Assembly: GCA_001029715.1 (NCBI GenBank)
Contig: CP011212.1
Location: 67,407-131,406, forward strand
Source of the DNA: a candidate division TM6 bacterium GW2011_GWF2_28_16
Lineage (GTDB): Bacteria > Patescibacteriota > Microgenomatia > UBA1400 > PJMF01
Direction: 5' to 3'
Length of the DNA stretch: 64,000 nucleotides
This document shows positions 24,445 through 47,838 of the stretch, piece after piece; the first letter of the stretch is position 1; each line of letters opens with the position of its first letter. Position numbers and translations under genes: made by a program. Under the pieces are notes generated by a model. The model was not told the origin of the DNA and did not search any database. It worked only from the letters and a program-made list of their open reading frames with translations.

Positions 24445-24446
24445 AT

Positions 24447-24740
24447 ATGAATATAACGGAGTATTGGCGCTCAAACAAACAATGGTCTAAATATCTTGGC
24501 AAAAAAGCCAAGGTTTTAGCTGTTTCATTGATGGAAGTGGCGGCTTCAGATCAAACTGCGCTTTTGCCTTATTCTTATTTGCTCCTAGATTTAGAGAAAA
24601 GTAAAATTTCTTTGATGGGTGCTGCTCATCAAGAATTTAAAATTGGTGATGAGGTAGAAATTGTTTTGCGCAAAATTAAAAAAGAGGCTCAGGAAGAGAT
24701 AATCGTTTATGGTCTCAAAGCGGAAAAAATTTATGTCTAG
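24447..24740 (+). CDS. DUF35-type OB-fold protein lacking the N-terminal zinc ribbon (thiolase/HMGS partner)
   Basis: 97 aa with no Cys. The pattern G..AKVLAVS..........LPYSYLLLDLE...ISLMG.......IGDEVEIVLRK resembles the DUF35 OB-fold. It occupies the same position as the archaeal thiolase-HMGS-DUF35 triad. Confidence 0.55.
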   Translation: MNITEYWRSNKQWSKYLGKKAKVLAVSLMEVAASDQTALLPYSYLLLDLEKSKISLMGAAHQEFKIGDEVEIVLRKIKKEAQEEIIVYGLKAEKIYV

Positions 24741-25599: not shown

Positions 25600-26585
25600 A
25601 AAAAGTGAAGACTTCTGCCCCAGGAAAATTGATGCTTTTTGGTGAACATAGTGTGGTTTTTGGTCATCCTTGTATTGTGACTGCCGTTGATCGTCGTTTA
25701 TCAATTACTGTTGAGGAAAATGGCGAAGAAGTTTTTATTTTAGATGCGCCAGATTTGGGTTTACGAGCTTATTCTAAGCGAATTTGTGATCTTGGTAATA
25801 AAGATTTGCCAAAAGAAGTTAGCTTTATCGAAACTTGCTATAAGCTATTTTTGGAGAAATACCCACAACAAAAAACTATTCATGTTTATAGCAAGAATGA
25901 ATTCAAATCTTCTTATGGTCTTGGTTCAAGTAGTGCTAGCACAGTGGCTTTTGCTAAAGCTTTAAGTGAGTTTTATGAAGTGCCAATGAATAATGATCAG
26001 TTGTTCGATTTGGCTTATCAGACTGTTTTAGAAGTGCAGGGTGTGGCTTCTGGTTTTGACATTGCAGCTGCAATTTGGGGTGGAACGATTTATTACATCA
26101 CTCCTCATGGCAAACTTAGTAAACATAAAACTGTCGAACCAATCAAAATCAAAAACTTGCCTTTGTTAGTTGCCTATACTGGTATTAAAGCTGATACTGC
26201 CACCTTAATTCGAATGGTGCAAAATTTGCACAGTGAAAACAAAGGAACAGTTAATCACATTTTTACCGATATTACTCTTTTGGTAGAACAGGCTAAAAAG
26301 ACTCTTCAACAGCAAGACTGGCCACATCTTGGCTTATTAATGGATGAGAACCAAGCTTTACTACGTAAATTGCAAATTAGTAGCATTGAGCTAGAGAATC
26401 TCATCGCTGCTGGCAAAAGTGCCGGAGCAATGGGAGCCAAGCTCTCTGGAGCTGGAGGCGGTGATTGTATGTTAGCTTTAGTTGATGAAGCTGAGAAAAA
26501 AGCCGTTGCTCAAGAAATTACCAAGGCTGGTGGTAAAATTATTGAGGTGGAGATGAATGCGGAGGGCGTACGTTTGGAAAACTAA
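25596..26585 (+). CDS. GHMP kinase, mevalonate/phosphomevalonate kinase (paralog 2)
   Basis: Shows APGKLMLFGEHSVVFG, SSYGLGSSSASTVAFA and KLSGAGGGDCMLAL. There is a 4-nt overlap with paralog 1. Confidence 0.8.
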   Translation: MKKVKTSAPGKLMLFGEHSVVFGHPCIVTAVDRRLSITVEENGEEVFILDAPDLGLRAYSKRICDLGNKDLPKEVSFIETCYKLFLEKYPQQKTIHVYSKNEFKSSYGLGSSSASTVAFAKALSEFYEVPMNNDQLFDLAYQTVLEVQGVASGFDIAAAIWGGTIYYITPHGKLSKHKTVEPIKIKNLPLLVAYTGIKADTATLIRMVQNLHSENKGTVNHIFTDITLLVEQAKKTLQQQDWPHLGLLMDENQALLRKLQISSIELENLIAAGKSAGAMGAKLSGAGGGDCMLALVDEAEKKAVAQEITKAGGKIIEVEMNAEGVRLEN

Positions 26586-26694
26586 GTTTCGAGCCAGAGA
26601 TCGCTTGAATAAATACATTTTTTCACGCGCTCAAATGTCTCTAAACTTAGTTTTCCAAAACGTACTTTATTTAATTAAGCAAATTGAAAAAAAT

Positions 26695-27693
26695 ATGAAA
26701 AAAACAACGGTTCAAGCAGGTAGTGATATCGCTTTTGTTAAGTATTGGGGCAAAAAGGATAAAATCCTACGTTTACCAAGCAATGGTAGTATTTCCATGA
26801 TTTTAGATTCTTTGCAGAGCAAAACTACTGTCGAGTTTTTGCCAAATTTAGCTAAGGATGAGATCATAATAGGTGGCGAAGTTGAAGAGGGAGAGGCTTC
26901 TCGTGCCATTAAACATTTGGACAGAATTAGAACTTTAGCCAAAGAAAAAGGATTGATAGATAAAGATATTTTTGCTAAAGTCGTTTCGGAGAATAATTTT
27001 CCCAAGAGCACTGGTCTTTCTAGCTCTGGTTCTGGTTTTGCTGCTTTGACCATGGCTGCCACTAAGGCTATTGGTTTAGATCTTTCAGAAAAAGAATTGT
27101 CTATTTTAGCCAGGCAAGGATCTGGCTCTGCCTGTCGCTGTGTTTGTGGTGGTTTTGTTGAGTGGTTAGATGGTGAAACTTCTGAAGAATCTTATGCACA
27201 AAGCTTTGCTAAGTCAGAAGATTTTGATATTAGAGATTTAGTGGCGATTGTTTCAGAAGATAAAAAGAATTTAAGCTCAAGTGATGGACATGATTTAGCA
27301 GAAAGCAGTTTGTTTTTTAAGGCTCGTCAAGAAAAAATTGATACCAAGTTAGCAGCTGTCAAAAGAGCAATTTTACAAAAAGACTTTGAAACCCTAGGTG
27401 AAATAGTAGAAGCCGAGGCTTTAGAGTTTCACTCAATTTTATTAACCAGTCAGCCAACTATCTTGTTGTTTTATCCGGGAACGATTGAGGTGATGCAGGC
27501 TGTTCGTCAATTGCGTAAGACTGGTGTGCCAGTTTATTTCACTATTAATACCGGCTTCAATGTCCACATTTTGACTTTACCTCAATATGAGAAACAGGTA
27601 GCTGCTGTTTTGCAAAATTTACCAAGTGTGCAGAAAATTATTATCTCAGGAGCAGGTAATCAGCCAGAATATTTAGAAAAACATTTGTTTTAA
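26695..27693 (+). CDS. mvaD: diphosphomevalonate decarboxylase
   Basis: Shows SDIAFVKYWGKKD, PKSTGLSSSGSGFAAL and GSGSACR. ATG 26695 (MKKTTVQAG..) is preferred; the 46-codon upstream extension in the ORF track has no homology-like content. Confidence 0.85.
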   Translation: MKKTTVQAGSDIAFVKYWGKKDKILRLPSNGSISMILDSLQSKTTVEFLPNLAKDEIIIGGEVEEGEASRAIKHLDRIRTLAKEKGLIDKDIFAKVVSENNFPKSTGLSSSGSGFAALTMAATKAIGLDLSEKELSILARQGSGSACRCVCGGFVEWLDGETSEESYAQSFAKSEDFDIRDLVAIVSEDKKNLSSSDGHDLAESSLFFKARQEKIDTKLAAVKRAILQKDFETLGEIVEAEALEFHSILLTSQPTILLFYPGTIEVMQAVRQLRKTGVPVYFTINTGFNVHILTLPQYEKQVAAVLQNLPSVQKIIISGAGNQPEYLEKHLF

Positions 27694-28187: not shown

Positions 28188-28261
28188 TGCGTGTGCTAGG
28201 ACTCGAACCTAGAACCGCCAAGGTATAAGCTTGGAGCTCTAACCAATTGAGCTACACACGC
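28188..28261 (-). tRNA. tRNA-Ile, anticodon UAU
   Basis: The minus-strand sequence folds into a clean 74-nt cloverleaf: acceptor GCGTGTG/CACACGC, D arm GCTC-AATTGGTTA-GAGC, anticodon stem CCAAG/CTTGG with loop C-T-TAT-A-C, variable CGGTT, T arm CTAGG-TTCGAGT-CCTAG, discriminator A. CCA is not encoded. Confidence 0.88.
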
Positions 28262-28303: not shown

Positions 28304-29287
28304 TTATAGAAGTAGTAGCAAGAGTGCGCCAACGCCTAGGGCTCCAAGGCCAGCTTTAATGTAGTTCATCCAATCAGCTGGGCCACTTTCAGTAGGAACG
28401 TTGATTGGGCGCACGATGGTGGTTTCACCATTTGCTAATTTGCATTGACTATCTGTAGGATTGACGTCGAGGCGACATTGACCGCTGTAACAAATATGAC
28501 TAATGTTGCTACAGTCAGCATTGGCATTACAAGTTTCGTTGCAGCCAACAGTGGTAATAACGGTGGTAACAGATGGAGTTGGAGTGCTGGTAGCGGTCAC
28601 AGTAGTAGTTGGAGTTACGGTTGTAGTTACAGTAGTGGTTGGAGTAACAGTTGTAGTAACGGTTGGAGTAACAGTTACGGTTGCTTCACAACAAGTTGTG
28701 CTACTAGGATCGGCGACACATTCATCGAGATAATCTTCATCTGCACAGTATTTAACAATGTTTCCATCGCCATCAGTATCTGAAGTAGAAATACAAACAT
28801 AACCATCTTCGCAGTCATCGCTGTTGGTACAGTCTTTTTCACCACAAGAAAGCAAGTTTTCTTCTGGAGCGGTGCAACAAGAGTCAGTGTTTGGATCATC
28901 TATACAGGCTGTTTTATAATCTTCATCTGCACAATATTTATTGCCATTGTCGGCCTCAATACAAATTAAATTACTGCTACAGTCATCGTCACTTTCGCAA
29001 CCACTCAAACCACAGGTAATTTTATCTGGTTCTGTAACTGTAAATTCAAGAGTACAAGTTTGAGTTTTTTCAATATAAGCAGCTGGCTGAGATTGAGGGG
29101 CAGTTGGGGCGACTGGAGTAGTGTCTTGTTTTTGCGTAATTAAGAAAACACTAACTGCGCCACCAACAAAAATTAGTAGACCCAGCAACATAGCGATCAC
29201 TTTAAAATCGCCTTTTTTCTTCAGAGCAGTTTGTCCTTGCTTTGATTTTACGTAGGTCGCTGGTGTTTCAATTTGTTCTATGTTCAT
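28304..29287 (-). CDS. Cys-rich surface protein with N-terminal signal anchor, T/V/P repeat stalk and C-terminal hydrophobic anchor
   Basis: The TM is FKVIAMLLGLLIFVGGAVSVFLI. Two roughly 50-aa modules (CG..(G/D)C..(D/S)DDC.....C......YCADEDY...C..DP.....CC) are followed by (TVTPTTTV)n, a third degenerate module, and the terminal GLGALGVGALLLLLL. Confidence 0.7.
   Translation of the reverse strand: MNIEQIETPATYVKSKQGQTALKKKGDFKVIAMLLGLLIFVGGAVSVFLITQKQDTTPVAPTAPQSQPAAYIEKTQTCTLEFTVTEPDKITCGLSGCESDDDCSSNLICIEADNGNKYCADEDYKTACIDDPNTDSCCTAPEENLLSCGEKDCTNSDDCEDGYVCISTSDTDGDGNIVKYCADEDYLDECVADPSSTTCCEATVTVTPTVTTTVTPTTTVTTTVTPTTTVTATSTPTPSVTTVITTVGCNETCNANADCSNISHICYSGQCRLDVNPTDSQCKLANGETTIVRPINVPTESGPADWMNYIKAGLGALGVGALLLLLL
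28590..28684. repeat. imperfect ~24-nt tandem repeat inside the CDS, encoding (TVTPTTTV)n
   Basis: Repeating units such as ggttggagtaacagttgtagtaac are visible on the plus strand. The wider T/V/P-coding tract spans about 28549-28686. Confidence 0.7.
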
Positions 29288-29291
29288 TATT

Positions 29292-30683
29292 TTAATTCAC
29301 ATTATCTATCATTGTGCTTGGTGAATTATCCACCATTTCCCAAACTTGGCATTCCGTTCCCCAGCAAATACGACCCTGGACAACGTAATCTCCAAAGCTT
29401 GAAATGGTGTAGGAATCAGATACATTTTTAGCAATTGCGCCACTAGTGTCAGTTAGATCTATCCAAGAGCTCATGCCTGGAGCCCAGATTCTAAATTCAT
29501 AATTAAAGTCAACTCCTTGGTTGCCGACAGCAGTGCAACGGAAGCGCACCTCATCTCCGTCCTTGAGACTATCATCATCGTTTGCTTCCATAGTATTGTT
29601 ATTAGCATCTAGCATATCTATGCTGGCACAAACTGGCATAGCCTGGCTTTCACAACAATTGGCAGTGCTTGGATCAGCTGCGCAAAACAATTGATTTTCT
29701 CCTTTGGCACAAATACCAGTCGATTGAGAGTCGACTGTTACTGTTTGACAAGTAAGACCATTTTGACAGTCAGAATTTTGAGTACAACCAATCACTCCGC
29801 AGGCTAAAAGTTCTGGAGGTGTAGTAGGAGTTGGAGTAGGTGTTCTATTTGGAGGATTAGTTGGAGTAGGGGTTGGTGTGGCGCAATCTGAACAATCAGC
29901 TCCAGCATCACCGCATAAAGCATCACAACTTGAGGCACTGCCTATCACCCACCAGCCAGCGCTACATTGGCAACGCATTAAGCCAGATTCTTCACAGTTT
30001 TCGATTACTGAAGTATTTGGATTGTCGCACCAATCTCCGCCCATGGATTGTTCTGTGCACGGATCTTGATCGGTAACGTAACCGCACATGGTATCGCCAT
30101 TGGCGATTATTCTACAGGTAGTACTAACACATGGTCCACCAGCTACGAGTCTATGCAGATTTGGACCGCAGGCCGCCACAGTTGTGGTTGGAGTAACGGT
30201 CGAACCACCCGTGGGTGTACAGGCACCATCAATTACACGATAGCCAGTAATACATCTTCCACTAGTACCATTACAATATGGATCTCCTTCCATACACATC
30301 TCACTGGCTTGTTGGCGGTTGTCTTGATTTTGTCTGCTAAGTATATAACTAGAAAAAACCCCAACTACCAAGAAAAAAACTATAAGTAAGCCAGCCAATT
30401 TATTATTTGATTTCTTTTTCACTTGAAAAGATGGTTTTTGATCAGTTGAAAGTGGATTTTGAATAGAAACAGTTTCAGCACCTGACTTAACTGCCTCTTT
30501 GAGAGGTTCATTATCTGTAATTGTATTACCGCGATATTCTGGTATTTCTGGTTCTTTAGCAAGATCATTCCAAGGGGAATCAATTTTTTCTGGTTCTTTA
30601 ACAAAGTTATCGGAAGAATCCTCTGCCTTGTCTATCTGGCTTTTTTTATATTTAGCTGGTATAAAATCTCTAGGATTATTCAT
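29292..30683 (-). CDS. Cys-rich surface protein (signal anchor, PT-linker, shared Cys module, C-terminal beta-rich domain)
   Basis: About 95 aa of cytoplasmic N-terminus precede the TM LAGLLIVFFLVVGVFSSYIL. Then come a Cys-rich region, a PTPTPTPTNPPNRTPTPTPTTPP linker, and the module CGVIGCTQNSDCQNGLTC...FCAADPSTANCC shared with the neighbouring gene. Confidence 0.7.
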   Translation of the reverse strand: MNNPRDFIPAKYKKSQIDKAEDSSDNFVKEPEKIDSPWNDLAKEPEIPEYRGNTITDNEPLKEAVKSGAETVSIQNPLSTDQKPSFQVKKKSNNKLAGLLIVFFLVVGVFSSYILSRQNQDNRQQASEMCMEGDPYCNGTSGRCITGYRVIDGACTPTGGSTVTPTTTVAACGPNLHRLVAGGPCVSTTCRIIANGDTMCGYVTDQDPCTEQSMGGDWCDNPNTSVIENCEESGLMRCQCSAGWWVIGSASSCDALCGDAGADCSDCATPTPTPTNPPNRTPTPTPTTPPELLACGVIGCTQNSDCQNGLTCQTVTVDSQSTGICAKGENQLFCAADPSTANCCESQAMPVCASIDMLDANNNTMEANDDDSLKDGDEVRFRCTAVGNQGVDFNYEFRIWAPGMSSWIDLTDTSGAIAKNVSDSYTISSFGDYVVQGRICWGTECQVWEMVDNSPSTMIDNVN

Positions 30684-30787
30684 TATTAGACAAAGAAAAT
30701 ACTTCTTCTTTTAAGAATAACCTATTTATAATTGTCTTTGCAAGAGGATATTAGTGTGTTATCTTGCGATTTTAGAGATCATCAACA

Positions 30788-31588
30788 ATGAAATTTTTAA
30801 AATTAAATACAAAACAAAGATATTGGCTAGATTTTATTCTTGTGATGACGCAAAAGGAGATAAAGGCAAGGTATAAGAGAACTTTTTTAGGTCTTTTGTG
30901 GGTAATTTTTAATCCATTCTTGCAGATGCTAATAATTGGTTTGATTTTTCAATTTTTTGTTCCTATGCAAATTGAGAATTATTTTCTTTATCTTTTTGCT
31001 GGTCTTTTACCTTGGAATTTCTTTTCAATGGCGCTTTTGCGCGCGACACCTCTTTTAGTGCAGGAAAGATCTTTGATTCAAAAAGCTGCTTTTCCTAGAG
31101 AATTAATGGTTGTGGCAGTGGTCATGGCAAATTTATTTCATACTTTAGTGGCTAGTTCAGTATTTTTGCTATTTTTAGCTTTTCTAAAGACGAGTTTTTT
31201 TGCTGGTGTCCTATTTTTTATATCTAGCTTTTTCTTAATCTTTTTAATACTTATCTTTTTATTATTTTTTACTTTGGCGACTTGTTTAGTTATTTCTGCA
31301 TTATATGTAAAGATAAGAGATTTAATTTTCATTATCCAACTTTCAATTCAATTGCTATTTTATGCTGTGCCAGTTATCTATAGTCTAGAGATGTTACCGG
31401 AATTTTTTAGAAATCTACTTTATCTAAATCCATTGGTTAGCTATATTGAGGTTTTTAGAGCGGCTGCTTTAAATAGTGTTTTCAATTATAAAATGGCAAT
31501 TTATGCCGGTCTTTTTTCCATTTTTTTTCTATTTTTTGCTCTGCAATTTTTTCGAAAAGAAAGCAAAAATTTTGATGATTGGTTTTAA
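30788..31588 (+). CDS. ABC-2 type transporter permease (Wzm/TagG-like)
   Basis: 266 aa with six TM helices. The N-terminal cytoplasmic helix EIKARYKRTFLGLLWVIFNP is typical of ABC-2 polysaccharide/teichoic-acid exporters. Confidence 0.82.
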   Translation: MKFLKLNTKQRYWLDFILVMTQKEIKARYKRTFLGLLWVIFNPFLQMLIIGLIFQFFVPMQIENYFLYLFAGLLPWNFFSMALLRATPLLVQERSLIQKAAFPRELMVVAVVMANLFHTLVASSVFLLFLAFLKTSFFAGVLFFISSFFLIFLILIFLLFFTLATCLVISALYVKIRDLIFIIQLSIQLLFYAVPVIYSLEMLPEFFRNLLYLNPLVSYIEVFRAAALNSVFNYKMAIYAGLFSIFFLFFALQFFRKESKNFDDWF

Positions 31589-31596
31589 ATTTTAAA

Positions 31597-32649
31597 ATGA
31601 AAAACAGTAAAAATAAAAAAATAGCTATAAATATAGAAAACGCTAGTAAACGCTATTTCTTGCGATCTGCAAAAGCTAAGAAAAAAGAAACTTTTTTTGC
31701 CTTAAAAGATATAAATATAAAAATATTTAAGGGAGAAAAAGTAGCTATTCTTGGTGACAATGGGGCTGGCAAGACTACTTTGCTCAAAGTAATGACTGGA
31801 ATAGCAGAACCAACTTGTGGGAAAGTGAATAGTATTGGTAAGCTTGTTTCCTTAATTGATATCACGGCTGGTTTTCATCCTGAGTTTTCAGGTCGTGAAA
31901 ATATTTATTTCAATGGCATTCTTTTAGGAATGAATCTTTCTTCAATTAAAAAATTAGAGCAAGAAATAATTAATTTTTCAGGTATAGAAAAATTTATAGA
32001 TCAAGCTCTTTATACCTATTCTTCAGGTATGGTTTTGCGGCTTGGTTTTTCTATTGCTATTCACAGCGATCCAGATATTTTAATTTTGGATGAGGAGGTG
32101 GTGGTGGGAGATCAGGATTTTCAGAAAAAGGCCTATGATGAAATTGAGAAGATTTTTGCTGAAGGTAAAACCATTGTTGTTTGTAGTCATGTTTTACCTT
32201 TACTGAGTAGACTTTGTGAGCGCTTCATCTGGCTAGATAAAGGCAAAGTAAAAATGGATGGAGGTAAAGAGGTTGTTATTGAATATAAAAAGAATCGAAG
32301 TAAATTGGATATAGAAAAAATTGGCAAGATTAAAAATGAAAAAAAATTTTTTCAATTTCTGCAATCTTTGCCAATCGGAGAGAGGTTTATTGTAGAAGCA
32401 GTCAGTGGCAGTATGGAGCCACTTATCTTAAAGGGCGATGAGGTAAGAGTTGAAAGGTGTTCACTTAAAAATATAAGAGTTGGCAACATAATTGCTTATT
32501 GGAGCGATGAATTTAAAAATATCATTGTTCATAGAATTTATAAGAAAAGCTCTAAGGGGATTTTCTTGACTAGAGGAGATAGTAACTATATTGTAGATGA
32601 GATGCCAGTCACAGAAGATATTTTTTTAGGTAAAGTTATTAATTTTTAA
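31597..32649 (+). CDS. ABC transporter ATP-binding protein (Wzt/TagH-like) fused to a C-terminal S24/S26-superfamily (SipW/Sec11-type) peptidase domain
   Basis: The NBD shows Walker A GDNGAGKTTL, TagH-like AGFHPEFSGRENIY, signature YSSGM and Walker B ILILDE. The C-terminal roughly 95 aa show SGSMEPLILKGDEV, IIVHRIY and TRGDSNYIVDE. No hydrophobic segment lies between the domains. ATG 31597 is preferred over 31579. Confidence 0.8.
   Translation: MKNSKNKKIAINIENASKRYFLRSAKAKKKETFFALKDINIKIFKGEKVAILGDNGAGKTTLLKVMTGIAEPTCGKVNSIGKLVSLIDITAGFHPEFSGRENIYFNGILLGMNLSSIKKLEQEIINFSGIEKFIDQALYTYSSGMVLRLGFSIAIHSDPDILILDEEVVVGDQDFQKKAYDEIEKIFAEGKTIVVCSHVLPLLSRLCERFIWLDKGKVKMDGGKEVVIEYKKNRSKLDIEKIGKIKNEKKFFQFLQSLPIGERFIVEAVSGSMEPLILKGDEVRVERCSLKNIRVGNIIAYWSDEFKNIIVHRIYKKSSKGIFLTRGDSNYIVDEMPVTEDIFLGKVINF
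32350..32646 (+). other. peptidase-like domain of the ABC ATPase (candidate Ser at nt 32410-32412 in SGSMEP, candidate His at 32530-32532 in VHRI)
   Basis: The box order SGSMEP - GD - VHR - GDSN..D matches the conserved boxes B, C, D and E of ER/archaeal-type signal peptidases (S26B). Confidence 0.6.
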
Positions 32650-32934
32650 ATGAGGATAAATATGAAAATATTATATATTCGAGACAATGATCTTTATTTT
32701 AAGGAGGAAGACGGCAAAATATTGGTTTTAAAAAAGAACAAAAAAGAAATTGTGGAATTAAATGAGGTTGGCTCTTTGATTTGGAAAGCTTTGAAGACGA
32801 AGAAGTCTATTGATGCTTTGGTGAAAAAAATAAATTCAGCTTTTGAGGGGGCAGATTCTAAGGAGGTAAAAAAAGATGTTGAGGAGTTTATTCTCAAGTG
32901 TTTAAAAGATTCAATAATAGAAAAAATAAATTAG
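32650..32934 (+). CDS. PqqD-family protein (RiPP recognition element-like)
   Basis: 94 aa with the pattern ..DGKILVLKKNKKEIVELNEVGSLIWKAL..KKSIDALVKKINSAFE....EVKKDVEEFILKCLKDSII. This is the typical PqqD/RRE layout of a beta-strand region followed by a winged helix. Its start abuts the upstream stop. Confidence 0.75.
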   Translation: MRINMKILYIRDNDLYFKEEDGKILVLKKNKKEIVELNEVGSLIWKALKTKKSIDALVKKINSAFEGADSKEVKKDVEEFILKCLKDSIIEKIN

Positions 32935-32938
32935 AGTT

Positions 32939-33922
32939 ATGAAAAAAATTAGCAGACAAGAGTTTGATTATTTAATTAAAAAAAGAAAGCTTGAAGATCC
33001 AAAGAAAATTAAAGCTTTTGAAAAAATACTAAAAGATGAGCGCGGTTATGTTTTCAAAATGCCTAAAAGAGGTTCGAATGTTATTTTAATGGCTTCTGGT
33101 GGACTTGATTCAATGGTTGTTTGGGGAATTTTAATGAAAGAATATGGCTTGAATGTTTATCCGATTACTTTTGACAGAGGTGAAAAAAAAAGAAACAGGG
33201 AATTTGCTGCTTTTAAATATTTTGATAAATTTTATCAGAAAAAATTTCCTAAAAATTATAGAAAATTTTTAGATTTAGACGTAGGACAAGATCAGATTTC
33301 AATAAAAATTGAAGACGGTGTCAAAGATCTACGAGAAGAAACATTATTAAATAATTTTAGAGATGACTTAATGTTTTTTAACCCCTCTTTAGGTGTTTTT
33401 ACTATCTTGCCACTTTTTGCACGTAGTTATGCCATGTATCTAAATGCAATTAAAGGTCTAAAAATTAATACTATTTTTTGTGCCGTCACAGCCAATGATG
33501 GGGAATTAATTGCTCATCAAACCTTAACTTCATTGAGGTCTATTATGTGCAACATGTGTGTTTCAATCAAAGATTATTCTTGGCAGTTTTTGTCAATTTG
33601 TTTAGAGCCAGAAATTAATTCTTTTATAAAGAAATCAGATCTTGTTAAGTGGGGAGAAGATAATAGTTTACCACTAGAAAAATCTTGGAGTTGTTACCAT
33701 GCGAAAAAGTATCAATGTGGTGGAGATAACTGTATTGCTTGTGAAGCGAGAAGAAAAGCATATTTAGAGGCAAAAATAGAAGATAGAACTATTTATAAAA
33801 GCCTTGCAGATCAGGAGATCCTAATTAAAAAAGCGAAAAAAACTTTAAGAAAGTATCTTTCTAGAACAAAAAAGAACTTAATAAACACAGTTAAACGTTT
33901 TTTTGAAGATACGATAAGATAG
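32939..33922 (+). CDS. QueC-like PP-loop ATP pyrophosphatase (divergent, with ~45-aa N-terminal extension)
   Basis: The PP-loop is VILMASGGLDSMVVW, followed by ITFDRGEK (QueC: FDYGQR). The C-terminal four-Cys cluster SCYHAKKYQCGGDNCIACEARR sits at the position of the QueC zinc site. Confidence 0.7.
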   Translation: MKKISRQEFDYLIKKRKLEDPKKIKAFEKILKDERGYVFKMPKRGSNVILMASGGLDSMVVWGILMKEYGLNVYPITFDRGEKKRNREFAAFKYFDKFYQKKFPKNYRKFLDLDVGQDQISIKIEDGVKDLREETLLNNFRDDLMFFNPSLGVFTILPLFARSYAMYLNAIKGLKINTIFCAVTANDGELIAHQTLTSLRSIMCNMCVSIKDYSWQFLSICLEPEINSFIKKSDLVKWGEDNSLPLEKSWSCYHAKKYQCGGDNCIACEARRKAYLEAKIEDRTIYKSLADQEILIKKAKKTLRKYLSRTKKNLINTVKRFFEDTIR

Positions 33923-33964
33923 AACTATCAAGGGGAAATCTAAGAATGCTGTTTAGAACTAAAT

Positions 33965-34033
33965 TTATTCAGCTACTACTAAGATAGCTTTTAGATCAAT
34001 AATTCTAAGTTGAGGTTTTTTATATTTTTGCAT
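33965..34033 (-). CDS. un-called 22-codon ORF MQKYKKPQLRIIDLKAILVVAE; candidate RiPP precursor / leader-like peptide
   Basis: Hand-translated from the minus strand. Y4-x-x-P7-x-L9 matches the YxxPxL leader motif bound by PqqD-like RREs. A TTGACA-17-TAACAT promoter ends 9 nt before the ATG. There is no Shine-Dalgarno, and the ORF is very short. Confidence 0.35.
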   Translation of the reverse strand: MQKYKKPQLRIIDLKAILVVAE

Positions 34034-34042
34034 TGTAATTTA

Positions 34043-34071
34043 ATGTTAGATAATTTTTAAGTTGTTGTCAA
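34043..34071 (-). promoter_or_regulatory. sigma-70-type promoter TTGACA-17 nt-TAACAT upstream of the 22-codon ORF
   Basis: On the minus strand, -35 TTGACA is at 34071-34066 and contains the TGA stop of the methyltransferase gene. The spacer is 17 nt and -10 TAACAT is at 34048-34043. The ATG is at 34033. Confidence 0.45.
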
Positions 34072-34784
34072 CGATTAGATTGCTTTTGAATTATGCCCAG
34101 TCCAGAGCCTAAATAATTTACTTCAATCTTATTTTTGTTTGTTTTTTCTTCCCAAAGTTTCCAGACTCCGTATTTTCCTTCTGGCAAAGTTTCTTTTATA
34201 GAAATATCGTGCAGAAGCATAAGACCTCCTTCATGGAGCATCGGCCAGAAGAGTTTAAAATCTGTTTTTATTCCTTCATAGGAATGGTCTCCGTCTATAT
34301 AGATATATTCATAGCTCATGTTTTTATATTTTTTGGCAAATTTTTGCGTAGTTGTTACAAATAGTTGGATATTATTTTCTAAGCCAAAATTTTTGAAATG
34401 ATCTTTGCCTTCTTGAGTTTTCCAAAAACCTTTTCCGGTCCATGAGCTTTTACCTTCTTTTTTTATTTCATCGCCAAATCCCGCATCAACAAAGTCGACT
34501 TTGCCAAAACCATTGTCATGACAAGCTTGAGCTAGAACAGCTGGTATATATCCATATCGGGATCCAATGCAAAGAATTTTCTTTGCTTTTATTTGTCTGA
34601 GTAGGCCATAGTGAATCCAACCATATCCTAGGTCAGCATTTTTGATATTGGATTCGTGTCCAAATTCATCTGCTTCAAAAAAATTCATTAATTCGGTAAT
34701 TCTTAAATCATTGGAGAGCTTTTTACTTTTTTCTTGCTGATGGAATATTAAATATTTTAAGATTTTTGTTTTGATTCCAAACAT
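34068..34784 (-). CDS. class I SAM-dependent methyltransferase (CmcI / Methyltransf_24-like)
   Basis: Shows ILCIGSRYGYIP (a degenerate G-rich motif I) and YIYIDGDHSYEGIKTDFKLFWPMLHEGGLMLLHDI. Confidence 0.7.
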   Translation of the reverse strand: MFGIKTKILKYLIFHQQEKSKKLSNDLRITELMNFFEADEFGHESNIKNADLGYGWIHYGLLRQIKAKKILCIGSRYGYIPAVLAQACHDNGFGKVDFVDAGFGDEIKKEGKSSWTGKGFWKTQEGKDHFKNFGLENNIQLFVTTTQKFAKKYKNMSYEYIYIDGDHSYEGIKTDFKLFWPMLHEGGLMLLHDISIKETLPEGKYGVWKLWEEKTNKNKIEVNYLGSGLGIIQKQSNR

Positions 34785-34789
34785 AGGTT

Positions 34790-35917
34790 TTAATTCTTTA
34801 AAATTTCGCTAATTTTTTTAATTTTATTATACCAACTATTTTCAATGGCTAATTGTCTAGCCTCTTTTCCATTTTTTTCAATCCAGCTATTTTTTTCAAT
34901 TGTTTCTATATGCTTTTTCCATTCTTGAGCATTTTTTCCTATTTTAATGAATTTTTTGAATTTATTATCAGTTAGTTCTTTTATTTCTGTAGAAATTATT
35001 GGTTTTTCAAAATAAAGATACTCAAAAGTTTTCATTGGATAGCAATTAGCATTAAATGGATAACTGACGTCATAGGGTATTATGCAGAGGTCAAATTGAG
35101 ATATTAATTGAGGAATTTTATCTTTTTTTTGAGATTCAATTTTTTTTACATTGGAGAAAGATAAAAATTTTTTAATTCGTTTTCTTTTATTTTCTTTTAT
35201 TTTTAAGTCTCTTTTAATTGGTCCAATAAAAGTGAAATTAGTTTCTGGCATTAACTTGACTAAATTTATCATTAGATCGTAGTCAATGCGGTCGCTTATG
35301 GCTCCAATAAAACCAACGTTTATTTTCTTCTTCTTTGAGAATTTTATGGGCGATTTTTCAAACATTTGCAAATCAAAGCCCTGAGACACTAAATGAAGCT
35401 TTTTTTTATTATATTTTGCCACTTCTTTTTTTAGGGTCTTTGAATTAACAAAAATATAGTTTGCTTTATCTAAATTTGTTTTATATTTTTTGAAATCAAA
35501 CCAATCAACTATATCTAAGATCAGCTCTCTTTTTTTCAAGTTATGCTTTTCTATTTCCACTGTAAGATCAAAGATCCACTCATATGTTTTTTTATTTATC
35601 GATAGAAAGAAAATAATAAACTCAGTAATAAAATAATTAATTTTGTTATTTAGTTTTGAAAATAAATCTTTTGTAAAGAGAAATTTAATTTTCTTTGGAA
35701 AAAAGTAAAAATATTTATAATAAAAAATGTCATTTTTTTTACTTAATAAAAAGAATTCTTGTTGAAAAAGCTTTTTCCAACTCAAGGAGAAATTTTTTTC
35801 AATAACTAAGACTTTATTATTATTTTGTGTTAAGATCCGAATAGTTTGTAATATGAAATCGCAAATTTCTTGAGGATTTTCATGAGTGGGAACAATAATA
35901 AAACTATTTCTAAGCAT
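34790..35917 (-). CDS. glycosyltransferase, GT-B fold (GT1/GT4-like)
   Basis: The C-terminal half reads INVGFIGAISDRIDYDLMINLVKLMPETNFTFIGPI ... IIPY......NANCYPMKTFEYL...KPIIST. Confidence 0.65.
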   Translation of the reverse strand: MLRNSFIIVPTHENPQEICDFILQTIRILTQNNNKVLVIEKNFSLSWKKLFQQEFFLLSKKNDIFYYKYFYFFPKKIKFLFTKDLFSKLNNKINYFITEFIIFFLSINKKTYEWIFDLTVEIEKHNLKKRELILDIVDWFDFKKYKTNLDKANYIFVNSKTLKKEVAKYNKKKLHLVSQGFDLQMFEKSPIKFSKKKKINVGFIGAISDRIDYDLMINLVKLMPETNFTFIGPIKRDLKIKENKRKRIKKFLSFSNVKKIESQKKDKIPQLISQFDLCIIPYDVSYPFNANCYPMKTFEYLYFEKPIISTEIKELTDNKFKKFIKIGKNAQEWKKHIETIEKNSWIEKNGKEARQLAIENSWYNKIKKISEILKN

Positions 35918-37435
35918 CGACTATATATTAGCAAAGTTTTTGATTTATTTTTTATCAAAAAAAATGCTTTTTCTAAACAAGAAAAAATTTCTATACTTAT
36001 ATCTATTTTGTTTTTAGTTTCAGTTTTCTTCATTCCAAACAATAAATTTTTATTCATGGTTACTGCAACTTACATACTTTCTTTATTTATCGTGAACAAG
36101 TCAATTTATGAAACCGTCTTTTATGCTTTTTTACCACTGAGTTTAGTTTTAGTTGGTCAAGGTTATTCTTATATTGCTATTCCTGGTGAAGCAATAAAAT
36201 CAGAGGGCTATGAAGAGGGAAAAATTTTAAATTATTTTTTTTCTCCATTTATTGTTTTGTTGATTTTAATTAGTTTTTTATTTTTTGTTAATTTAACTCA
36301 AAAACTTTTTAGAAAAAAATCTTTTATTAAATTTAAGCCATTTATTATTTCTTTTTTATTCTTTTTTCTTTTTTCTTTTTTTTCTGCAATTAGCAATGAT
36401 TCTTTTCCAAAATTGTCCTTTCTTTACTTTTTAAATGATTTTCTATTTTTTATTTCTTGTTTTTTTATTGCGCTGTTTATTTCAGATAGCAAGGAAAAAA
36501 CAAATAAAATGAATTTGATTCTATTAAATTTGATAATTTTATCTGTTTTTTTAGGGATGGTTGTGATTTTTCAATTTATAAACAAATCACCCTTAGGAAT
36601 AATAGCTGAAATGAGCCACGAAGTCCCATTTTTTGGAGGTGGAGCAGATGAAGACAGTTCTTTATTTAGACCGATAGGAATTTTTACTCACGCTAATATT
36701 CTGGCTAACTATTTAAGCAATTTATTTTTTTCTATATTTTTATTGAAAGCTTATTTAATAGAAAAAAAAGAATTACTCATTAATAAAAAGTTTATCAATA
36801 TTGGATTGCTTCTCATTTTTATTTCTATATTCTCAACTCTCTCAAGAGCAGTTTATTTAGCTTTGTTTTTATCAGCATTGATTTATGTGTTTATTTTTAG
36901 AAAAGAAATATCCGCAAGCGGTAAGAAAATAGTTAAAAAAATATTGAAAGTTAAATATTTAATTTTTCTTTTACCTTTGATGTGGAATGTAGCTGTAAGA
37001 ATAATTTACAGTTTCAATAGCTTTTATCAAGAGGGAGGGGTTGGAGTTCGGGAAAAACTAACTATAGAGAGCTTAGCTCTTTTAAGAAGAAATTTTTTTT
37101 ATGGAGTGGGAACTGGCATGTTTATCCCATCTTTGTTTAGGGAAAATCCCATTGGAATCATAAGCGAATTTCCGGAGTCAGTTCATAATGGTATTTTATT
37201 AAATTTAATTGAAAATGGGTTTCTTTCTTTTTTCTTCTTTTTGATGGTTTATTTTTTATTTTTCAAAGCTTTAATAGCTTTAAAAGCTAATAAGAAAATC
37301 ATCGTAATTTCTTTTCTAGCAATTTTTTCCCAATTAGTAATAAGTTTCTTTCATCCATTCACAAACACCGTTACTCTATATACTTTTATTATGATTTTGA
37401 TAATATATGATCTATATGCAATTGAAAAAAAATAA
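35870..37435 (+). CDS. O-antigen ligase/polymerase-like (Wzy_C family) membrane protein
   Basis: Polytopic, with LSRAVYLALFLSALIY and ESVHNGILLNLIENGFLSF (a WaaL/Wzy-type loop and motif). The start is uncertain because the ORF overlaps the divergent gene's 5' end. Confidence 0.65.
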   Translation: MRIFMSGNNNKTISKHRLYISKVFDLFFIKKNAFSKQEKISILISILFLVSVFFIPNNKFLFMVTATYILSLFIVNKSIYETVFYAFLPLSLVLVGQGYSYIAIPGEAIKSEGYEEGKILNYFFSPFIVLLILISFLFFVNLTQKLFRKKSFIKFKPFIISFLFFFLFSFFSAISNDSFPKLSFLYFLNDFLFFISCFFIALFISDSKEKTNKMNLILLNLIILSVFLGMVVIFQFINKSPLGIIAEMSHEVPFFGGGADEDSSLFRPIGIFTHANILANYLSNLFFSIFLLKAYLIEKKELLINKKFINIGLLLIFISIFSTLSRAVYLALFLSALIYVFIFRKEISASGKKIVKKILKVKYLIFLLPLMWNVAVRIIYSFNSFYQEGGVGVREKLTIESLALLRRNFFYGVGTGMFIPSLFRENPIGIISEFPESVHNGILLNLIENGFLSFFFFLMVYFLFFKALIALKANKKIIVISFLAIFSQLVISFFHPFTNTVTLYTFIMILIIYDLYAIEKK

Positions 37436-38294
37436 AATTTTAAAGTGGCTAAAGTCTTTTGACAAGATAGATATTATTGGCATTGTTTTCTTTTTTTTGA
37501 TTCTATTTAGTTCTGCATTATTTCTTTTAAGAAGGTCTGAATATGTGTACATTACCATAAGAGTTACCAAAGAAGACAGCCTTCATAATCAATGGTGGGT
37601 TCAGCCGTCTAATTGGTATTTGAAAAATTTAACTGATGGCCTGGAAGATAAAGACCTAATGGGGAAAGTTAATGCGAGATTAGAAAATATGTATTTTTAT
37701 CCAAGAAATGAATCGGTTCAAGATATATTTATAGTTTTAAAATTAGAGGCAACATACAATAAGAGATCAAATCAATATTCATATAAGGGCTTACCTCTTT
37801 TAATGGGCAGCTATCAAAAAATTGAACTAGGAGGAAATTCAATAAGAGGAATGGTTCAAGATCTTAGCTTAGACCCTCCGGTTAGAAAGATGAAATCTTT
37901 TAGGGTTAAAGTCGAGTTAGAGGCTGAAAATAATAGATCTGCTTTTACCAATGCAAATATCGAATATCGTGGAATTGATAATTTTTTGGCAGATCCGATC
38001 AAAGTAGGACTAGTTTCTTATGACAGCGAAAAAGAAGAAATTGTTAAAGTAATTGATGTAAAAAAATCTCCTTCTTATAAAATTTTTATTTCTCCTTTGA
38101 CCAATAAATTAGTCAGTGCCTATGATCCAGATAGACAAAAAGTAGAAATGGAGATGATAGTTAAGCAAGCTGAGGTTTTTGATGGCACTTATTTATACAG
38201 AGAAGATTTGGTAATTGCTTTGGGAGAGGTAATTCCTCTTTATTTTGATTCTCTAACCTTAAACGCAACTGTCACAGGTATAGAGGAGCTCTAG
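37407..38294 (+). CDS. N-terminally anchored protein, DUF4330-like
   Basis: The N-terminus is KWLKSFDKIDIIGIVFFFLILFSSALFLL, followed by a soluble beta-rich domain. The family assignment is tentative. Confidence 0.4.
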   Translation: MIYMQLKKNKILKWLKSFDKIDIIGIVFFFLILFSSALFLLRRSEYVYITIRVTKEDSLHNQWWVQPSNWYLKNLTDGLEDKDLMGKVNARLENMYFYPRNESVQDIFIVLKLEATYNKRSNQYSYKGLPLLMGSYQKIELGGNSIRGMVQDLSLDPPVRKMKSFRVKVELEAENNRSAFTNANIEYRGIDNFLADPIKVGLVSYDSEKEEIVKVIDVKKSPSYKIFISPLTNKLVSAYDPDRQKVEMEMIVKQAEVFDGTYLYREDLVIALGEVIPLYFDSLTLNATVTGIEEL

Positions 38295-38301
38295 AGTTTT
38301 T

Positions 38302-39774
38302 TTATTGGCAATTCCATTTTTCTATTGTTTGTAGCTCGTGCTCCAAAAAACAATTTTCATTTAAAATTTTTCGAACTTCTTCTTTGTTTTTTAAATTATC
38401 TTGATATTCTTTTTCTAGATAAAGTTTTTTTGATTTCAATAGGCTCTCTAAACTACTGAGATTGTTGAGATAAATTCTATTGGTAACTTCGCTATTTTTA
38501 TTTTCATTAGACTTAATATATGTTGAATCATTTTCCATAGTATTAATGCTTAGAGTGTCTAGAAGAATACTTTCTGGAAAATATAAACTTAGCTCATTTC
38601 TTTCTTTGGTGAGATATTCAATTTTTTCTAATCTTTGTTTTGAATAAATACTTTTTAAGTTTGATAAGTTTTGAGGAATCCAAATAATAAACATCAGGAG
38701 AATTATCAAAAAAATATTGTTTTTTTTGATAAATATTTTTTTCACATAAAAAACAAAAAATATGATGTAAAGAATATGCGCTCTTGGAATCAAAACTGAT
38801 ACGTTTGGAAAAATTGTTCCAATTTTATAAATAGATGACAATATTGGAGATAGCAATGAGTAGCTCAAGGTAATTATAAATGGAGTGCTTACTAGCAACG
38901 CTATTTCTTTATTTTTTTTGAGGGTTTTGCTTTTTATGATTTTGGAAGTTATAAAAATTGTTATTAATATGAATATTAAAATTGTTAAAAATTTATTTTT
39001 AAAAATATTAATTCCAATGTTTTCTAAATAAAAACTGCTCAAATTTAAAAGAGTGGGCTTTTTTATCCAATCAATATTATTAAACTGCTGATAATTTTTA
39101 TAAGCACTGATAAGTAAAAATTCAAAAAAATAAATAAGTAGAAAACTTAGATATTGGATTATCTTTTTATTTTTATATAGTAGATAAGAAATTAATGTGA
39201 CCGCTAATACTATAAAACTATAGTCAACATAAATTCCCAGAACTGTTGATAAAATTAGCAAGAATAATGTTTTTTTATTTTTATTATTTAGATAGAGGTC
39301 AAATAAGATAATACTGGTACTACCAATAAAAATTAATAAGCTATACATTCTCAGTTGCCATGATTGTTGAATTATAAGAGGATGAAAACTTATTAAAGTC
39401 GCAAGCAAAACAGCAGAAAAAAAGTCTTTTCTAGTTTTTAATTTATAAAAAGATAAAAATATTATTGCTAGAACTTGAAAAACTAGAGAAGATAAAATTC
39501 TTAAAAATGTTAAATCTCTAGTAAAGAAAAGCAAAAATTTTAGATACAAATAATATCCCCCAGGATGTACATCCTGATTGAAATTAATAGCCATTTCTTT
39601 GAAATTGTATCTTTGAGTAAAAAACAAGGAATATTTTTCATCCAGCCACAGCGGTTGTGTTTTGATCGTGTATAATTTGATTATTATTCCAGACAGAATT
39701 ATAAGAAAAAGAATTATCTTTTCCTTTTTCTGAGGAATGCTATTTATATAAGTTTTAATAGATTTAAGTTTCAT
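38302..39774 (-). CDS. GT-C fold membrane glycosyltransferase (ArnT/PMT, GT39/GT83-like)
   Basis: About 12 TM helices, with the early loop PLWLDEKYSLFF carrying a D-E motif typical of GT-C enzymes. ATG 39774 (MKLKSIKTY..) is preferred over 39828. Confidence 0.6.
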   Translation of the reverse strand: MKLKSIKTYINSIPQKKEKIILFLIILSGIIIKLYTIKTQPLWLDEKYSLFFTQRYNFKEMAINFNQDVHPGGYYLYLKFLLFFTRDLTFLRILSSLVFQVLAIIFLSFYKLKTRKDFFSAVLLATLISFHPLIIQQSWQLRMYSLLIFIGSTSIILFDLYLNNKNKKTLFLLILSTVLGIYVDYSFIVLAVTLISYLLYKNKKIIQYLSFLLIYFFEFLLISAYKNYQQFNNIDWIKKPTLLNLSSFYLENIGINIFKNKFLTILIFILITIFITSKIIKSKTLKKNKEIALLVSTPFIITLSYSLLSPILSSIYKIGTIFPNVSVLIPRAHILYIIFFVFYVKKIFIKKNNIFLIILLMFIIWIPQNLSNLKSIYSKQRLEKIEYLTKERNELSLYFPESILLDTLSINTMENDSTYIKSNENKNSEVTNRIYLNNLSSLESLLKSKKLYLEKEYQDNLKNKEEVRKILNENCFLEHELQTIEKWNCQ

Positions 39775-40678: not shown

Positions 40679-40680
40679 TT

Positions 40681-41841: not shown

Positions 41842-41843
41842 TT

Positions 41844-47835: not shown

Positions 47836-47838
47836 CTT

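Follow-up and report, generated by a model that had tools for sequence, protein, structure and literature searches.

A QueC-family enzyme with a PqqD-type recognition protein, a leader-like mini-peptide, and a peptidase-fused exporter: a probable RiPP-type cassette of candidate phyla radiation bacteria

The 64,000-nucleotide stretch of DNA described here—contig CP011212.1, positions 67,407 to 131,406, from candidate division TM6 bacterium GW2011_GWF2_28_16, in the following called the window—bears a compact cassette of a PqqD-family protein, a QueC-family PP-loop enzyme, an ATP-binding cassette (ABC) exporter with a fused serine peptidase domain, a methyltransferase, and a 22-codon open reading frame (ORF). 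This cassette is probably a conserved, leader-guided system for the modification and export of a peptide that is ribosomally synthesized and modified post-translationally (RiPP), in which the PqqD-family protein would guide a modification at the peptide C terminus. An earlier, sequence-only reading of this DNA had proposed a new RiPP-type unit made up of the YxxP mini-ORF, the PqqD and QueC-like proteins, and the peptidase-fused exporter; all five features that it named are found where it placed them—as ORFs, domains, or spacer ORF—and the peptide, fusion, and co-variation data laid out below speak in its favor. Its domain calls are borne out by profile hidden Markov models (PF05402, PF06508, and PF01061). 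The features, with Pfam and NCBIfam profile scores, are:

30788 to 31588, plus strand: ABC-2 type permease (Wzm/TagG-like), exporter subunit (PF01061 ABC2_membrane, 57.8 bits)
31597 to 32649, plus strand: whole gene of the ATPase–peptidase, ABC_tran plus C-terminal peptidase domain
31597 to 32349, plus strand: ABC nucleotide-binding domain (NBD), TagH/Wzt-like (PF00005 ABC_tran, 72.4 bits; alternative TTG start at 31579)
32350 to 32649, plus strand: C-terminal Sec11/SipW-type (S26B) serine peptidase domain fused to the NBD (TIGR02228, 69.4 bits)
32650 to 32934, plus strand: PqqD-family RiPP recognition element (RRE), 94 residues (PF05402, 45.2 bits)
32939 to 33922, plus strand: QueC-family PP-loop ATP pyrophosphatase, 327 residues (PF06508, 53.6 bits; SGGLDS; C252, C260, C265, and C268)
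33923 to 34067: convergent spacer of 145 bp, whose minus strand carries the mini-ORF
33965 to 34033, minus strand: candidate precursor or scaffold peptide gene, 22 codons plus stop, encoding MQKYKKPQLRIIDLKAILVVAE
34043 to 34071, minus strand: predicted sigma-70-type promoter TTGACA-17-TAACAT (10 of 12 positions)
34068 to 34784, minus strand: Methyltransf_24 methyltransferase, S-adenosylmethionine-dependent (PF13578, 66.3 bits)

Related loci were gathered from contigs that encode QueC-like homologues, from scans of species-representative genomes and of metagenomes, and, by an independent route, from contigs that encode homologues of the ATPase–peptidase fusion. The scans were queried with a closer subset of the QueC-like family, the full 29-member alignment being too diverse. 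All 25 related loci that have a PqqD gene or domain also carry a short ORF with a K-Y-x-x-P start, located at most about 150 bp from the QueC-like or the PqqD gene; the small ORF that the sequence-only reading expected next to such genes is thus conserved. The QueC-like proteins of these loci go down to about 30% identity with that of the window, and gene order and strand are shuffled: the peptide gene may follow the QueC-like gene in convergent orientation, sit between it and PqqD, lie upstream of PqqD, or diverge from a QueC-like::PqqD fusion. The encoded peptides measure 20 to 29 residues. Within the 64-kb window, the strict motif K[YFW]x[KR]Px[LIVMF] has one match among 379 ATG ORFs of 15 to 60 residues. 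In the 25 loci, the 200 bp around the QueC-like and PqqD genes show a six-fold enrichment of a loose version of the motif (Poisson P ~3e-14); it is present in 24 of the loci, and in the remaining one the peptide was located by eye. The first nine codons of the mini-ORF differ from those of loci L001 and L038 at synonymous positions only, although the synonymous and nonsynonymous counts are too small to carry decisive weight alone. We take the mini-ORF to be a real, conserved gene. Peptides of the related loci are:

L001: MQKYKKPQLKVIDLKAILIVSE
L003, first: MKKYIKPRLKKVILKALLARSE
L003, second: MKKQLKKYVKPELKKNKVKINFAFAASK
L013: MKKYNKPVLKKAKIKISLAVAEAI
L010: MKKYEAPRDKKITLKVVLAETP
L039: MKKYEAPKDKKIALKVVLAT
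L042: MKKKYTTPSSKRAKIKALLAVAE
L047: MKKKSQVKAVKYQKPSDTRSKITVMLVET
L056: MKKYHKPQDKRTKIKVVLYEIY
L058: MKRVYVIPADDRLNVSALMAITE
L059: MKKYTKPSLKVKDIKVSLIYVE
L054: a called gene of 42 residues, beginning MKKGAKVLKKTYVKPARREISV

Expression signals before the peptide genes are conserved as well. The promoter that the sequence-only reading had assigned to it is the best promoter-like match in 30500 to 34300, and the same arrangement, TTGACA-N17-TA[AG]CAT, also precedes the peptide in L001, L038, L003/L008, and L009; other peptide types bear a promoter plus a Shine-Dalgarno site. As read from the sequence, 9 nt separate the end of the -10 hexamer from the ATG, and hence the predicted mRNA is leaderless or near-leaderless. 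The mini-ORF lies 34 nt downstream of the Methyltransf_24 gene on the same strand, and Rfam and terminator scans returned no RNA element or terminator within the spacer. The peptide itself matched no NCBIfam peptide family.

Some loci show more than one peptide-like ORF. L003 (5703–10487) encodes two paralogous PqqD/QueC-like pairs with one common transporter, each pair with its own peptide type—one ending in ARSE, the other in AASK—which hints at two products or at one two-peptide product. In L039 (around 6990–7025) and L041 (around 6990–7040), another very short ORF lies shortly upstream of the peptide gene and repeats the C-terminal half of the peptide only, without KYxxP (MLALKVVLVET in L039/L040, MDYKIALKVVLVIPE in L041); this ORF might be a duplicate in decay or an additional substrate without a leader.

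The PqqD-family protein has its best NCBIfam matches in the lasso-peptide PqqD and the pyrroloquinoline quinone (PQQ) PqqD models, both below cutoff (29.9 vs 80 for the lasso model), and its gene adjoins the QueC-like gene in most loci. The two are also joined physically: a C-terminal PqqD domain is present in 32 of the 47 longest QueC-like members among the best 150 clusters. Another family member, P0050, is a QueC-like::S24/S26 fusion, whose C-terminal peptidase carries TSMEP, IVHR, and TKGDN. Since QueC-like::PqqD and QueC-like::S26 fusions exist, the enzyme appears tied to a peptide substrate. The general hallmark of a RiPP system, a short encoded precursor beside an RRE-associated enzyme, is hereby found across taxa, in all 25 PqqD-containing loci and in the fusions.

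The QueC-like enzyme bears the PP-loop and the Cys cluster that the sequence-only reading had noted, and both the SGGxD motif and the four Cys are invariant in 29 family members. Yet it is not a member of the QueC equivalog family, as TIGR00364 scores 35.3 bits vs a cutoff of 150.3. The motifs YxQxHxxE, VPxRN, and YPDC, which a survey of PF06508 describes as essential for preQ0 synthesis (PMC13329287), are found neither in the window enzyme nor in the consensus of the family; where YxQxHxxE would stand, the enzyme reads FDRGEKKRNRE. Genes of the queD, queE, queF, and tRNA-guanine transglycosylase families occur in none of the neighborhoods with Pfam calls, so the ordinary preQ0 context against which the sequence-only reading had weighed its proposal is not what the gene travels with. 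An AlphaFold2 model (pLDDT 88.8) is closest to QueC (2pg3 and 3bl5) and Cap9 (9nto); further PP-loop enzymes, among them the nitrile synthetase ArtA, come next. Relative to canonical QueC, the enzyme has an additional N-terminal helical extension of about 45 residues, an insertion of about 40 residues, and a long C-terminal helix. By sequence, the best match in the Protein Data Bank is Cap9 (E 4.8e-10), with QatC among the further matches; the QatC model NF041925 reaches 19 vs a cutoff of 280. PADLOC gave a weak generic QueC match and no defense context, and the partners QatA/B/D, CD-NTase, and Cap10 are absent from the neighborhoods.

The family is large and carries names that do not describe it. 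A profile search of 1.84 billion representative proteins gave at least 250 clusters at 50% identity (E <1e-30), publicly labeled "7-cyano-7-deazaguanine synthase" or hypothetical protein; the window enzyme itself has a 100% identical counterpart in a hypothetical protein of Candidatus Pacebacteria bacterium GW2011_GWF2_38_9. The subfamily falls outside the curated models. The PF06508 survey distinguishes QueC, QatC, Cap9, LarE, WbpG-like, and GMP-synthase clusters and makes no mention of PqqD, peptides, Patescibacteria, or a peptide- or PqqD-associated cluster (PMC13329287). We propose that this enzyme is not a preQ0 synthase but the class-defining, peptide-modifying enzyme of the cassette. 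Canonical QueC and ToyM have in common with it the fold of PF06508, the PP-loop with SGGxDS, and, at the C terminus, the four-Cys (zinc) motif, and their two-step conversion of a carboxylate via an amide to a nitrile may serve as a template for its chemistry, whereas equivalog score, substrate motifs, and gene neighborhood set it apart from them.

The anatomy of the peptides suggests where such chemistry might take place. Across 17 aligned peptides, the Tyr and the Pro of the Y-x-x-P motif are invariant and the preceding Lys is nearly so, which agrees with the earlier assignment of the mini-ORF start to the lasso-type YxxPxL leader motif; an alternating hydrophobic stretch, I-x-L-K-A-x-L, follows. 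The distance from Pro to the C terminus is 13 to 17 residues in the 17 aligned peptides and 18 in L060. This range applies to loci with a separate PqqD; peptides of the QueC-like::PqqD subfamily are more variable, with 15 to 32 residues after Pro. The C-terminal residues are not conserved (AE, SE, GE, TP, TG, VS, ED, AT, VT, RT, SK, AK, AI, MN, and IY), some peptides (L039 and L041) bear no acidic side chain in their C-terminal half, and, while the peptides are Lys-rich, no Lys downstream of the motif is universal (L004, L012, and L047). In lasso precursors, YxxPxL occupies positions -17 to -12 (PMC10368454). The same register, with Tyr at -17, leaves a "core" of 0 to 5 residues in the present peptides, which are therefore essentially leaders—lasso-type in sequence and with almost no core. 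At the enzyme-distal end, the sole reactive feature common to all of them is the C-terminal α-carboxylate, at a fixed distance from the motif. A fixed distance combined with variable last residues makes adenylation of this carboxylate the most likely action of the enzyme.

Precedents for the individual steps are available. QueC itself uses ATP to convert a carboxylate to an amide and then to a nitrile. In Cap9, a QueC-type adenylate is joined to an amine of a protein, which yields an amide (10.1101/2025.04.06.647259), and PesC of the nitrilobacillin pathway, an Asn-synthetase-like PP-loop enzyme, turns a RiPP's C-terminal carboxylate into a nitrile (PMC13060819). By analogy, the chemistry of PesC and of the Asn-synthetase-like C-terminal amidation enzymes is the one that we consider most likely here. 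The machinery differs: PesC belongs to the Asn-synthetase family, is Gln-dependent, and acts with multinuclear nonheme iron-dependent oxidative (MNIO) enzymes and HExxH hydroxylases in Bacillus relatives, whereas the present cassette has a QueC-family enzyme, no glutaminase, and a PqqD RRE, and is found in bacteria of the candidate phyla radiation (CPR).

The exporter subunits are related to the Wzm/Wzt and TagGH transporters as nearest relatives, but by their scores they are not members. The nearest NCBIfam models of the NBD are galactan Wzt (172 bits vs 400) and TagH (168.5 vs 320), both below their equivalog cutoffs; that of the permease is galactan Wzm (66 vs 380). In the homologue search, TagH proteins of Bacillaceae are the next-best NBDs. 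Most of the longer related loci have the ABC-2 permease gene next to the QueC-like gene.

The last ~100 residues of the ATPase constitute the peptidase domain. The sequence-only reading had recognized a serine peptidase here under an S24/S26 label; the peptidase stands, while its type is S26B (Sec11/SipW, Ser-His) and not S24. Pfam Peptidase_S24 remains just under its gathering score (21.4 vs 23.3 bits), and TIGR02228, "signal peptidase I, archaeal type," is passed with 69.4 bits vs a cutoff of 51.85. In an alignment with human SEC11A (7p2p), SGSMEP, IVHR, and T(R/K)GD(S/N)N (TRGDSN in the window) fall opposite the SEC11A motifs that carry the catalytic Ser, His, and Asp; the SEC11A chain 9rjb, with SGAMEP at the first motif, is part of the same alignment. 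All fused homologues examined keep the Ser, His, and Asp motifs, and with them the Ser/His pair to which the earlier reading had tied the domain. As no hydrophobic segment lies between NBD and peptidase, the active site is predicted to be cytoplasmic, on the motor subunit of the exporter, and the domain thus departs in its sequence-derived topology from the trans-side, membrane-anchored layout of archaeal/ER-type signal peptidase I, which acts on Sec signal peptides. We propose it as the peptide-processing protease. The protein collection contains about 55 such fused proteins of 328 to 357 residues, which go by the name of "signal peptidase I" in some cases and of "polysaccharide/polyol phosphate transport ATPase" in others; they were found with a profile of 12 full-length fusions, a search with the peptidase domain alone giving one match. 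To our knowledge, the coupling of a Sec11/SipW-type peptidase to an ABC ATPase has not been described. Peptidase-containing ABC transporters (PCATs), with their C39 domain, likewise couple a protease physically to the exporter of a ribosomal peptide; in the present case the protease is S26B-type, cytoplasmic, and placed at the C terminus of a separate NBD subunit of an ABC-2 system.

The peptidase tracks the peptide. It accompanies PqqD and peptide in most related loci, usually fused to the ABC ATPase, and every examined locus that has PqqD, peptide, and transporter bears an S26 domain with catalytic motifs on the ATPase. The domain is absent from the ATPases of L006 and L007, two loci without PqqD or a recognizable peptide. 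Where the ATPase is unfused or absent (L015, L017, L018, L044, and L047), an S26-like peptidase is found stand-alone or fused to NTP_transf_5, and in several of these loci it adjoins PqqD. Starting reciprocally from the NBD–S26 fusion, three of four new loci contain PqqD, QueC-like, Methyltransf_24, and peptide. L039 and L041 present the most complete arrangement in one co-directional and tightly packed run: Methyltransf_24, a pyridoxal phosphate (PLP)-dependent decarboxylase, permease, ATPase–peptidase, QueC-like, peptide, PqqD, and a second methyltransferase. Most loci have Methyltransf_24 next to the QueC-like gene, and it belongs to the conserved core of the cassette; for none of its homologues is there a solved structure. 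The PLP decarboxylase is part of the conserved set in most loci and is missing from the window. The sequence-only reading had counted neither as part of the set.

Taken as a pathway, the 22-residue ribosomal peptide would be made from its own promoter and bound by the PqqD-family protein at its N-terminal K-Y-x-x-P-x-L segment. PqqD would present it to the QueC-family enzyme, which would adenylate the C-terminal α-carboxylate; nitrogen would then replace the adenylate to give a C-terminal amide, possibly a nitrile, as QueC does on its own substrate. In loci with a PLP decarboxylase—not including the window—an amine cap might be installed instead. Methyltransf_24 would tailor the product, the cytoplasmic Sec11/SipW-type Ser-His-Asp domain on the ABC ATPase would cut the peptide, and the ABC-2 transporter would export the product. 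Our confidence is highest for binding by PqqD and falls from there via action of the enzyme on the peptide, C-terminal adenylation and nitrogen transfer, tailoring by the methyltransferase, and cleavage by the S26 domain to export.

Several observations weigh against this pathway. L006 and L007 keep QueC-like, Methyltransf_24, decarboxylase, and ABC-2 genes without PqqD, peptidase, or a recognizable peptide, and hence the QueC-like enzyme may not always act on a peptide. Conversely, L057 has an NBD–S26 fusion but neither a QueC-like nor a PqqD gene. In many loci (L004, L006, L039, L040, L042, L047, L056, L059, and L060) the cassette has glycosyltransferase, Wzy_C, RGP, or Bac_transf genes beside it, the NBD is closest to glycan and teichoic-acid exporters, and the large glycan locus of the window comes with no further ABC transporter. 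In Cap9 the protein partner supplies the amine rather than the carboxylate, as has also been proposed for QatC. Peptide anatomy is the sole source for the modification site, and no consistent Ala-x-Ala-type cleavage site is found across the peptides: an Ala-x-Ala signal-peptidase site before the last 1 to 4 residues (VVA|E, ARS|E, and AFA|ASK) fails in LVEIE, VLVT, and VLRT. A microcin C-like peptidyl-nucleotide product was likewise considered and not adopted, as no C-terminal Asn is conserved.

A variant of the pathway to which we give a low probability treats the 20- to 29-residue peptides as "leader-only" scaffolds rather than antibiotic precursors, with the adenylated C terminus as point of attachment. 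Short peptides that serve as recognition handles for chemistry at their extreme C terminus are known from the peptide-aminoacyl tRNA ligase (PEARL)/pearlin, mycofactocin, PQQ, and LysW carrier pathways, from which the window differs in having no LanB-like, radical-SAM, or ATP-grasp enzyme. In one possible version, a small amine-derived metabolite would be built on the peptide, tailored by decarboxylase and methyltransferase, and released by the peptidase, by analogy to the PEARL pathways. In another possible version, the peptide would be grafted onto the cell-surface glycan of the TagGH-like ABC-2 transporter, and the fused peptidase domain would read and clip this handle during export. If so, a ribosomal peptide would take the role of the chain-terminating cap that is normally recognized by Wzt C-terminal domains.

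Also unlikely, in our estimate, is that the cassette centers on the glycan itself. Here, the ABC-2 transporter would export a teichoic-acid- or O-antigen-like polymer, which QueC-like enzyme, methyltransferase, and decarboxylase would decorate or cap, for example by uronic acid amidation or amine addition; peptide, PqqD, and peptidase would be accessory, the peptide maybe being grafted to the glycan or serving as an export handle that the peptidase removes. The kinship of the NBD to galactan Wzt and TagH (TagH proteins being the next-best matches) fits this view, as do the glycan genes between 34 and 50 kb of the window (GT1, GT2, two Wzy_C, WecG/TagA, epimerase, and DegT) without another ABC transporter, their recurrence beside the cassette in the nine loci named above, and the peptide-free gene sets of L006 and L007. 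PF06508 moreover includes a sugar-amidotransferase cluster, represented by WbpG; the motifs of the present family differ from that cluster as described (PMC13329287). The peptidase domain, however, tracks peptide and PqqD, while all glycan-flanked loci carry glycan genes with or without a peptide; the QueC-like::PqqD and QueC-like::S26 fusions and the YcaO and radical-SAM RiPP contexts of distant members also speak against this view. ABC-2 exporters also serve linear azole peptide RiPPs (SagGHI and McbEF). The sequence-only reading had made its case depend on a transporter that does not co-vary only with the adjacent glycan locus, and on this point, as on the others listed there that were examined, the result is in its favor: the peptidase domain of the transporter co-varies with PqqD and peptide, and in L039 and L041 the transporter is part of one co-directional gene run with them. 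The recurrence of glycan genes beside the cassette in many loci had escaped that reading.

Less probable still is a conjugation as in Cap9 or QatC, whereby the enzyme would adenylate a small acid—7-carboxy-7-deazaguanine or another—and ligate it to the N terminus or a Lys amine of the peptide. Cap9 and QatC are the closest solved relatives by sequence and fold, and in both a QueC scaffold is repurposed to polypeptide modification via an acyl-adenylate; Cap9 ligates the deazaguanine carboxylate to a protein N terminus and QatC is proposed to do likewise, the present peptides are rich in Lys, and AMP-binding-like enzymes occur near some loci. Against this stand the lost deazaguanine-binding motifs, the missing queD/queE genes, and the N terminus of the peptides, which forms the conserved segment for RRE binding and retains its Met (M-K/Q), whereas Cap9 and QatB substrates have Gly N termini. 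A Lys downstream of the motif is not universal, and the tight distance from Pro to the C terminus points to the C terminus instead. The Cap9 (type IV CBASS) and QatC (QatABCD) systems are also anti-phage systems that act on the N-terminal Gly of a folded partner (CD-NTase or QatB), with 7-carboxy-7-deazaguanine as the carboxylate in Cap9, while the present cassette has an RRE, a 20- to 29-residue peptide, no defense context, and a likely C-terminal target.

The lasso peptides (A/B1/B2/C/D) are the closest match in general logic: they share the PqqD-family recognition protein, the Y-x-x-P-x-(L) leader, a PP-loop (SGGxDS) enzyme for carboxylate activation, a protease dedicated to the pathway, and an ABC exporter. 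The sequence-only reading had accordingly entertained a head-to-Glu lactam, in which, after leader removal, the new N terminus would attack an adenylated Glu side chain to close an 8-residue ring. The leader motif as in lasso precursors (PMC10368454), the presence of a PP-loop enzyme as in the lasso cyclase, the Glu at the end of the window peptide, and the NTP_transf_5, sulfotransferase, and HprK-related tailoring families in distant loci—accessories that lasso clusters have as well—agree with this idea. It is nevertheless very improbable and finds no support here: the C-terminal Glu is not conserved, several peptides lack any acidic residue after the motif (a lasso core has Asp or Glu at position 7 to 9), and the peptides stop where the lasso core of about 15 to 25 residues begins. 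Neither a transglutaminase-like B2 nor an Asn-synthetase-like cyclase is encoded among the eight genes of 28304 to 35917, and the peptide matches no lasso peptide model significantly. As the sequence-only reading had pointed out, every catalytic part differs in family from its lasso counterpart: QueC-family vs Asn-synthetase-like, S26B Ser-His vs Cys protease, and ABC-2/TagH-like vs McjD-like.

An ordinary QueC for preQ0 beside a glycan exporter and a chance ORF in an AT-rich spacer, for which speak the public name "7-cyano-7-deazaguanine synthase" of homologues and the fact that promoter-like sites are no commoner in the region than in shuffled sequence, is excluded by the conservation and fusion data—an ORF kept at the protein level in 25 loci, and PqqD and S26 fused to the enzyme in family members—together with the failed TIGR00364 score and the absent substrate motifs.

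The general logic of a PqqD-guided peptide modification is known from RiPP pathways, especially lasso peptides. What appears new is the class-defining enzyme family, the protease–exporter fusion, and the leader-only substrates. A literature search found no paper that links a QueC-family enzyme to PqqD or RiPPs, in line with the earlier statement that no described RiPP class combines a QueC homologue with an RRE. If the proposed pathway holds, the QueC/PF06508 PP-loop ATPases join RRE-dependent peptide biosynthesis, and the modification of polypeptides by QueC scaffolds, as in Cap9 and QatC, extends beyond phage defense. It would also correct the annotation of at least 250 clusters at 50% identity, the publicly named ones of which are called 7-cyano-7-deazaguanine synthase. 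An enzyme that adds amides, nitriles, or amine caps to peptide C termini by means of a 9-residue tag would make a useful biocatalyst, and the fusion of a Sec11/SipW-type peptidase to an ABC ATPase is directly testable. We know of few natural-product pathways from CPR/Patescibacteria, whose genomes are tiny; with such genomes, a conserved pathway that recurs in dozens of uncultured CPR bacteria merits attention.

The more distant family members have neighbors from classical RiPP pathways or from families linked to lasso peptides, in favor of the peptide reading. L017 encodes a SagD-type YcaO cyclodehydratase above its model cutoff and a nitroreductase-family dehydrogenase, L006 has adjacent radical SAM/SPASM enzymes, L054 has adjacent NTP_transf_5, a radical SAM enzyme, and an Asn-synthase fragment, and L004 has an adjacent sulfotransferase. 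Around the QueC-like::PqqD fusion of L017 (4268–12692) and L018 (5121–6380), SagD-type YcaO, nitroreductase-family, Hint-domain, sulfatase, and HprK-related/ScmC-like proteins are found. The S26-like peptidase::NTP_transf_5 fusion is identified in L017 by Pfam and NCBIfam and apparently in L018, there by motifs and sequence similarity only; we have not seen this architecture described. In L057 (3098–8468), Methyltransf_24, an Orn/Arg decarboxylase, the ABC-2 permease, and the ATPase–S26 fusion are accompanied by a 456-residue protein with a weak AMP-binding_C_2 match that resembles an adenylate-forming ligase and may stand in for the activating enzyme as a nonorthologous replacement; a KYxxP peptide was not found in this locus. 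Shikimate genes (aroB, dehydroquinase, and DAHP synthase) near the cassette in L005, L007, L009, L013, and L014 were considered as part of the pathway and rejected in favor of housekeeping synteny; their aroB passes its equivalog cutoff, and the set is absent from the window.

Beyond the methyltransferase gene, the window contains a large surface-glycan locus (34790–50139; low GC content, 0.26–0.30) with a TuaH-like GT1, two Wzy_C proteins (521 and 766 residues), two GT2, another GT1, an epimerase/dehydratase, a WecG/TagA-type transferase, a GFO/IDH oxidoreductase, and a DegT aminotransferase; three further proteins (295, 490, and 508 residues) have no family match. On the other side of the cassette, on the minus strand of 28304 to 30683, two adjacent genes encode Cys-rich proteins of 327 and 463 residues, with an N-terminal membrane anchor and long Pro/Thr linkers and without a Pfam or NCBIfam match; the 327-residue protein has a hydrophobic tail ending in …GLGALGVGALLLLLL. 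They are probably surface proteins and possibly glycosylated. The GC content of this segment (0.425) is above that of its surroundings, and homologues flank the cassette in L001, L003, L005, L007, L013, and L014. The only tRNA gene of the window (28188–28261, minus strand) lies between a 139-residue ORF and the Cys-rich genes. Further upstream, a co-directional run of ORFs on the plus strand (23335–27693) ends with a diphosphomevalonate decarboxylase-like gene (26557–27693); syntenic genes in L001, L003, and L059 belong to the GHMP-kinase or mevalonate decarboxylase family, and the run may represent mevalonate-pathway genes in a CPR bacterium. Finally, the assemblies of L009, L010, L011, L014, L017, and L018 are labeled "uncultured Gammaproteobacteria" or "Pseudomonadales," labels that look wrong, as gene content and synteny are those of Microgenomates/Pacebacteria.

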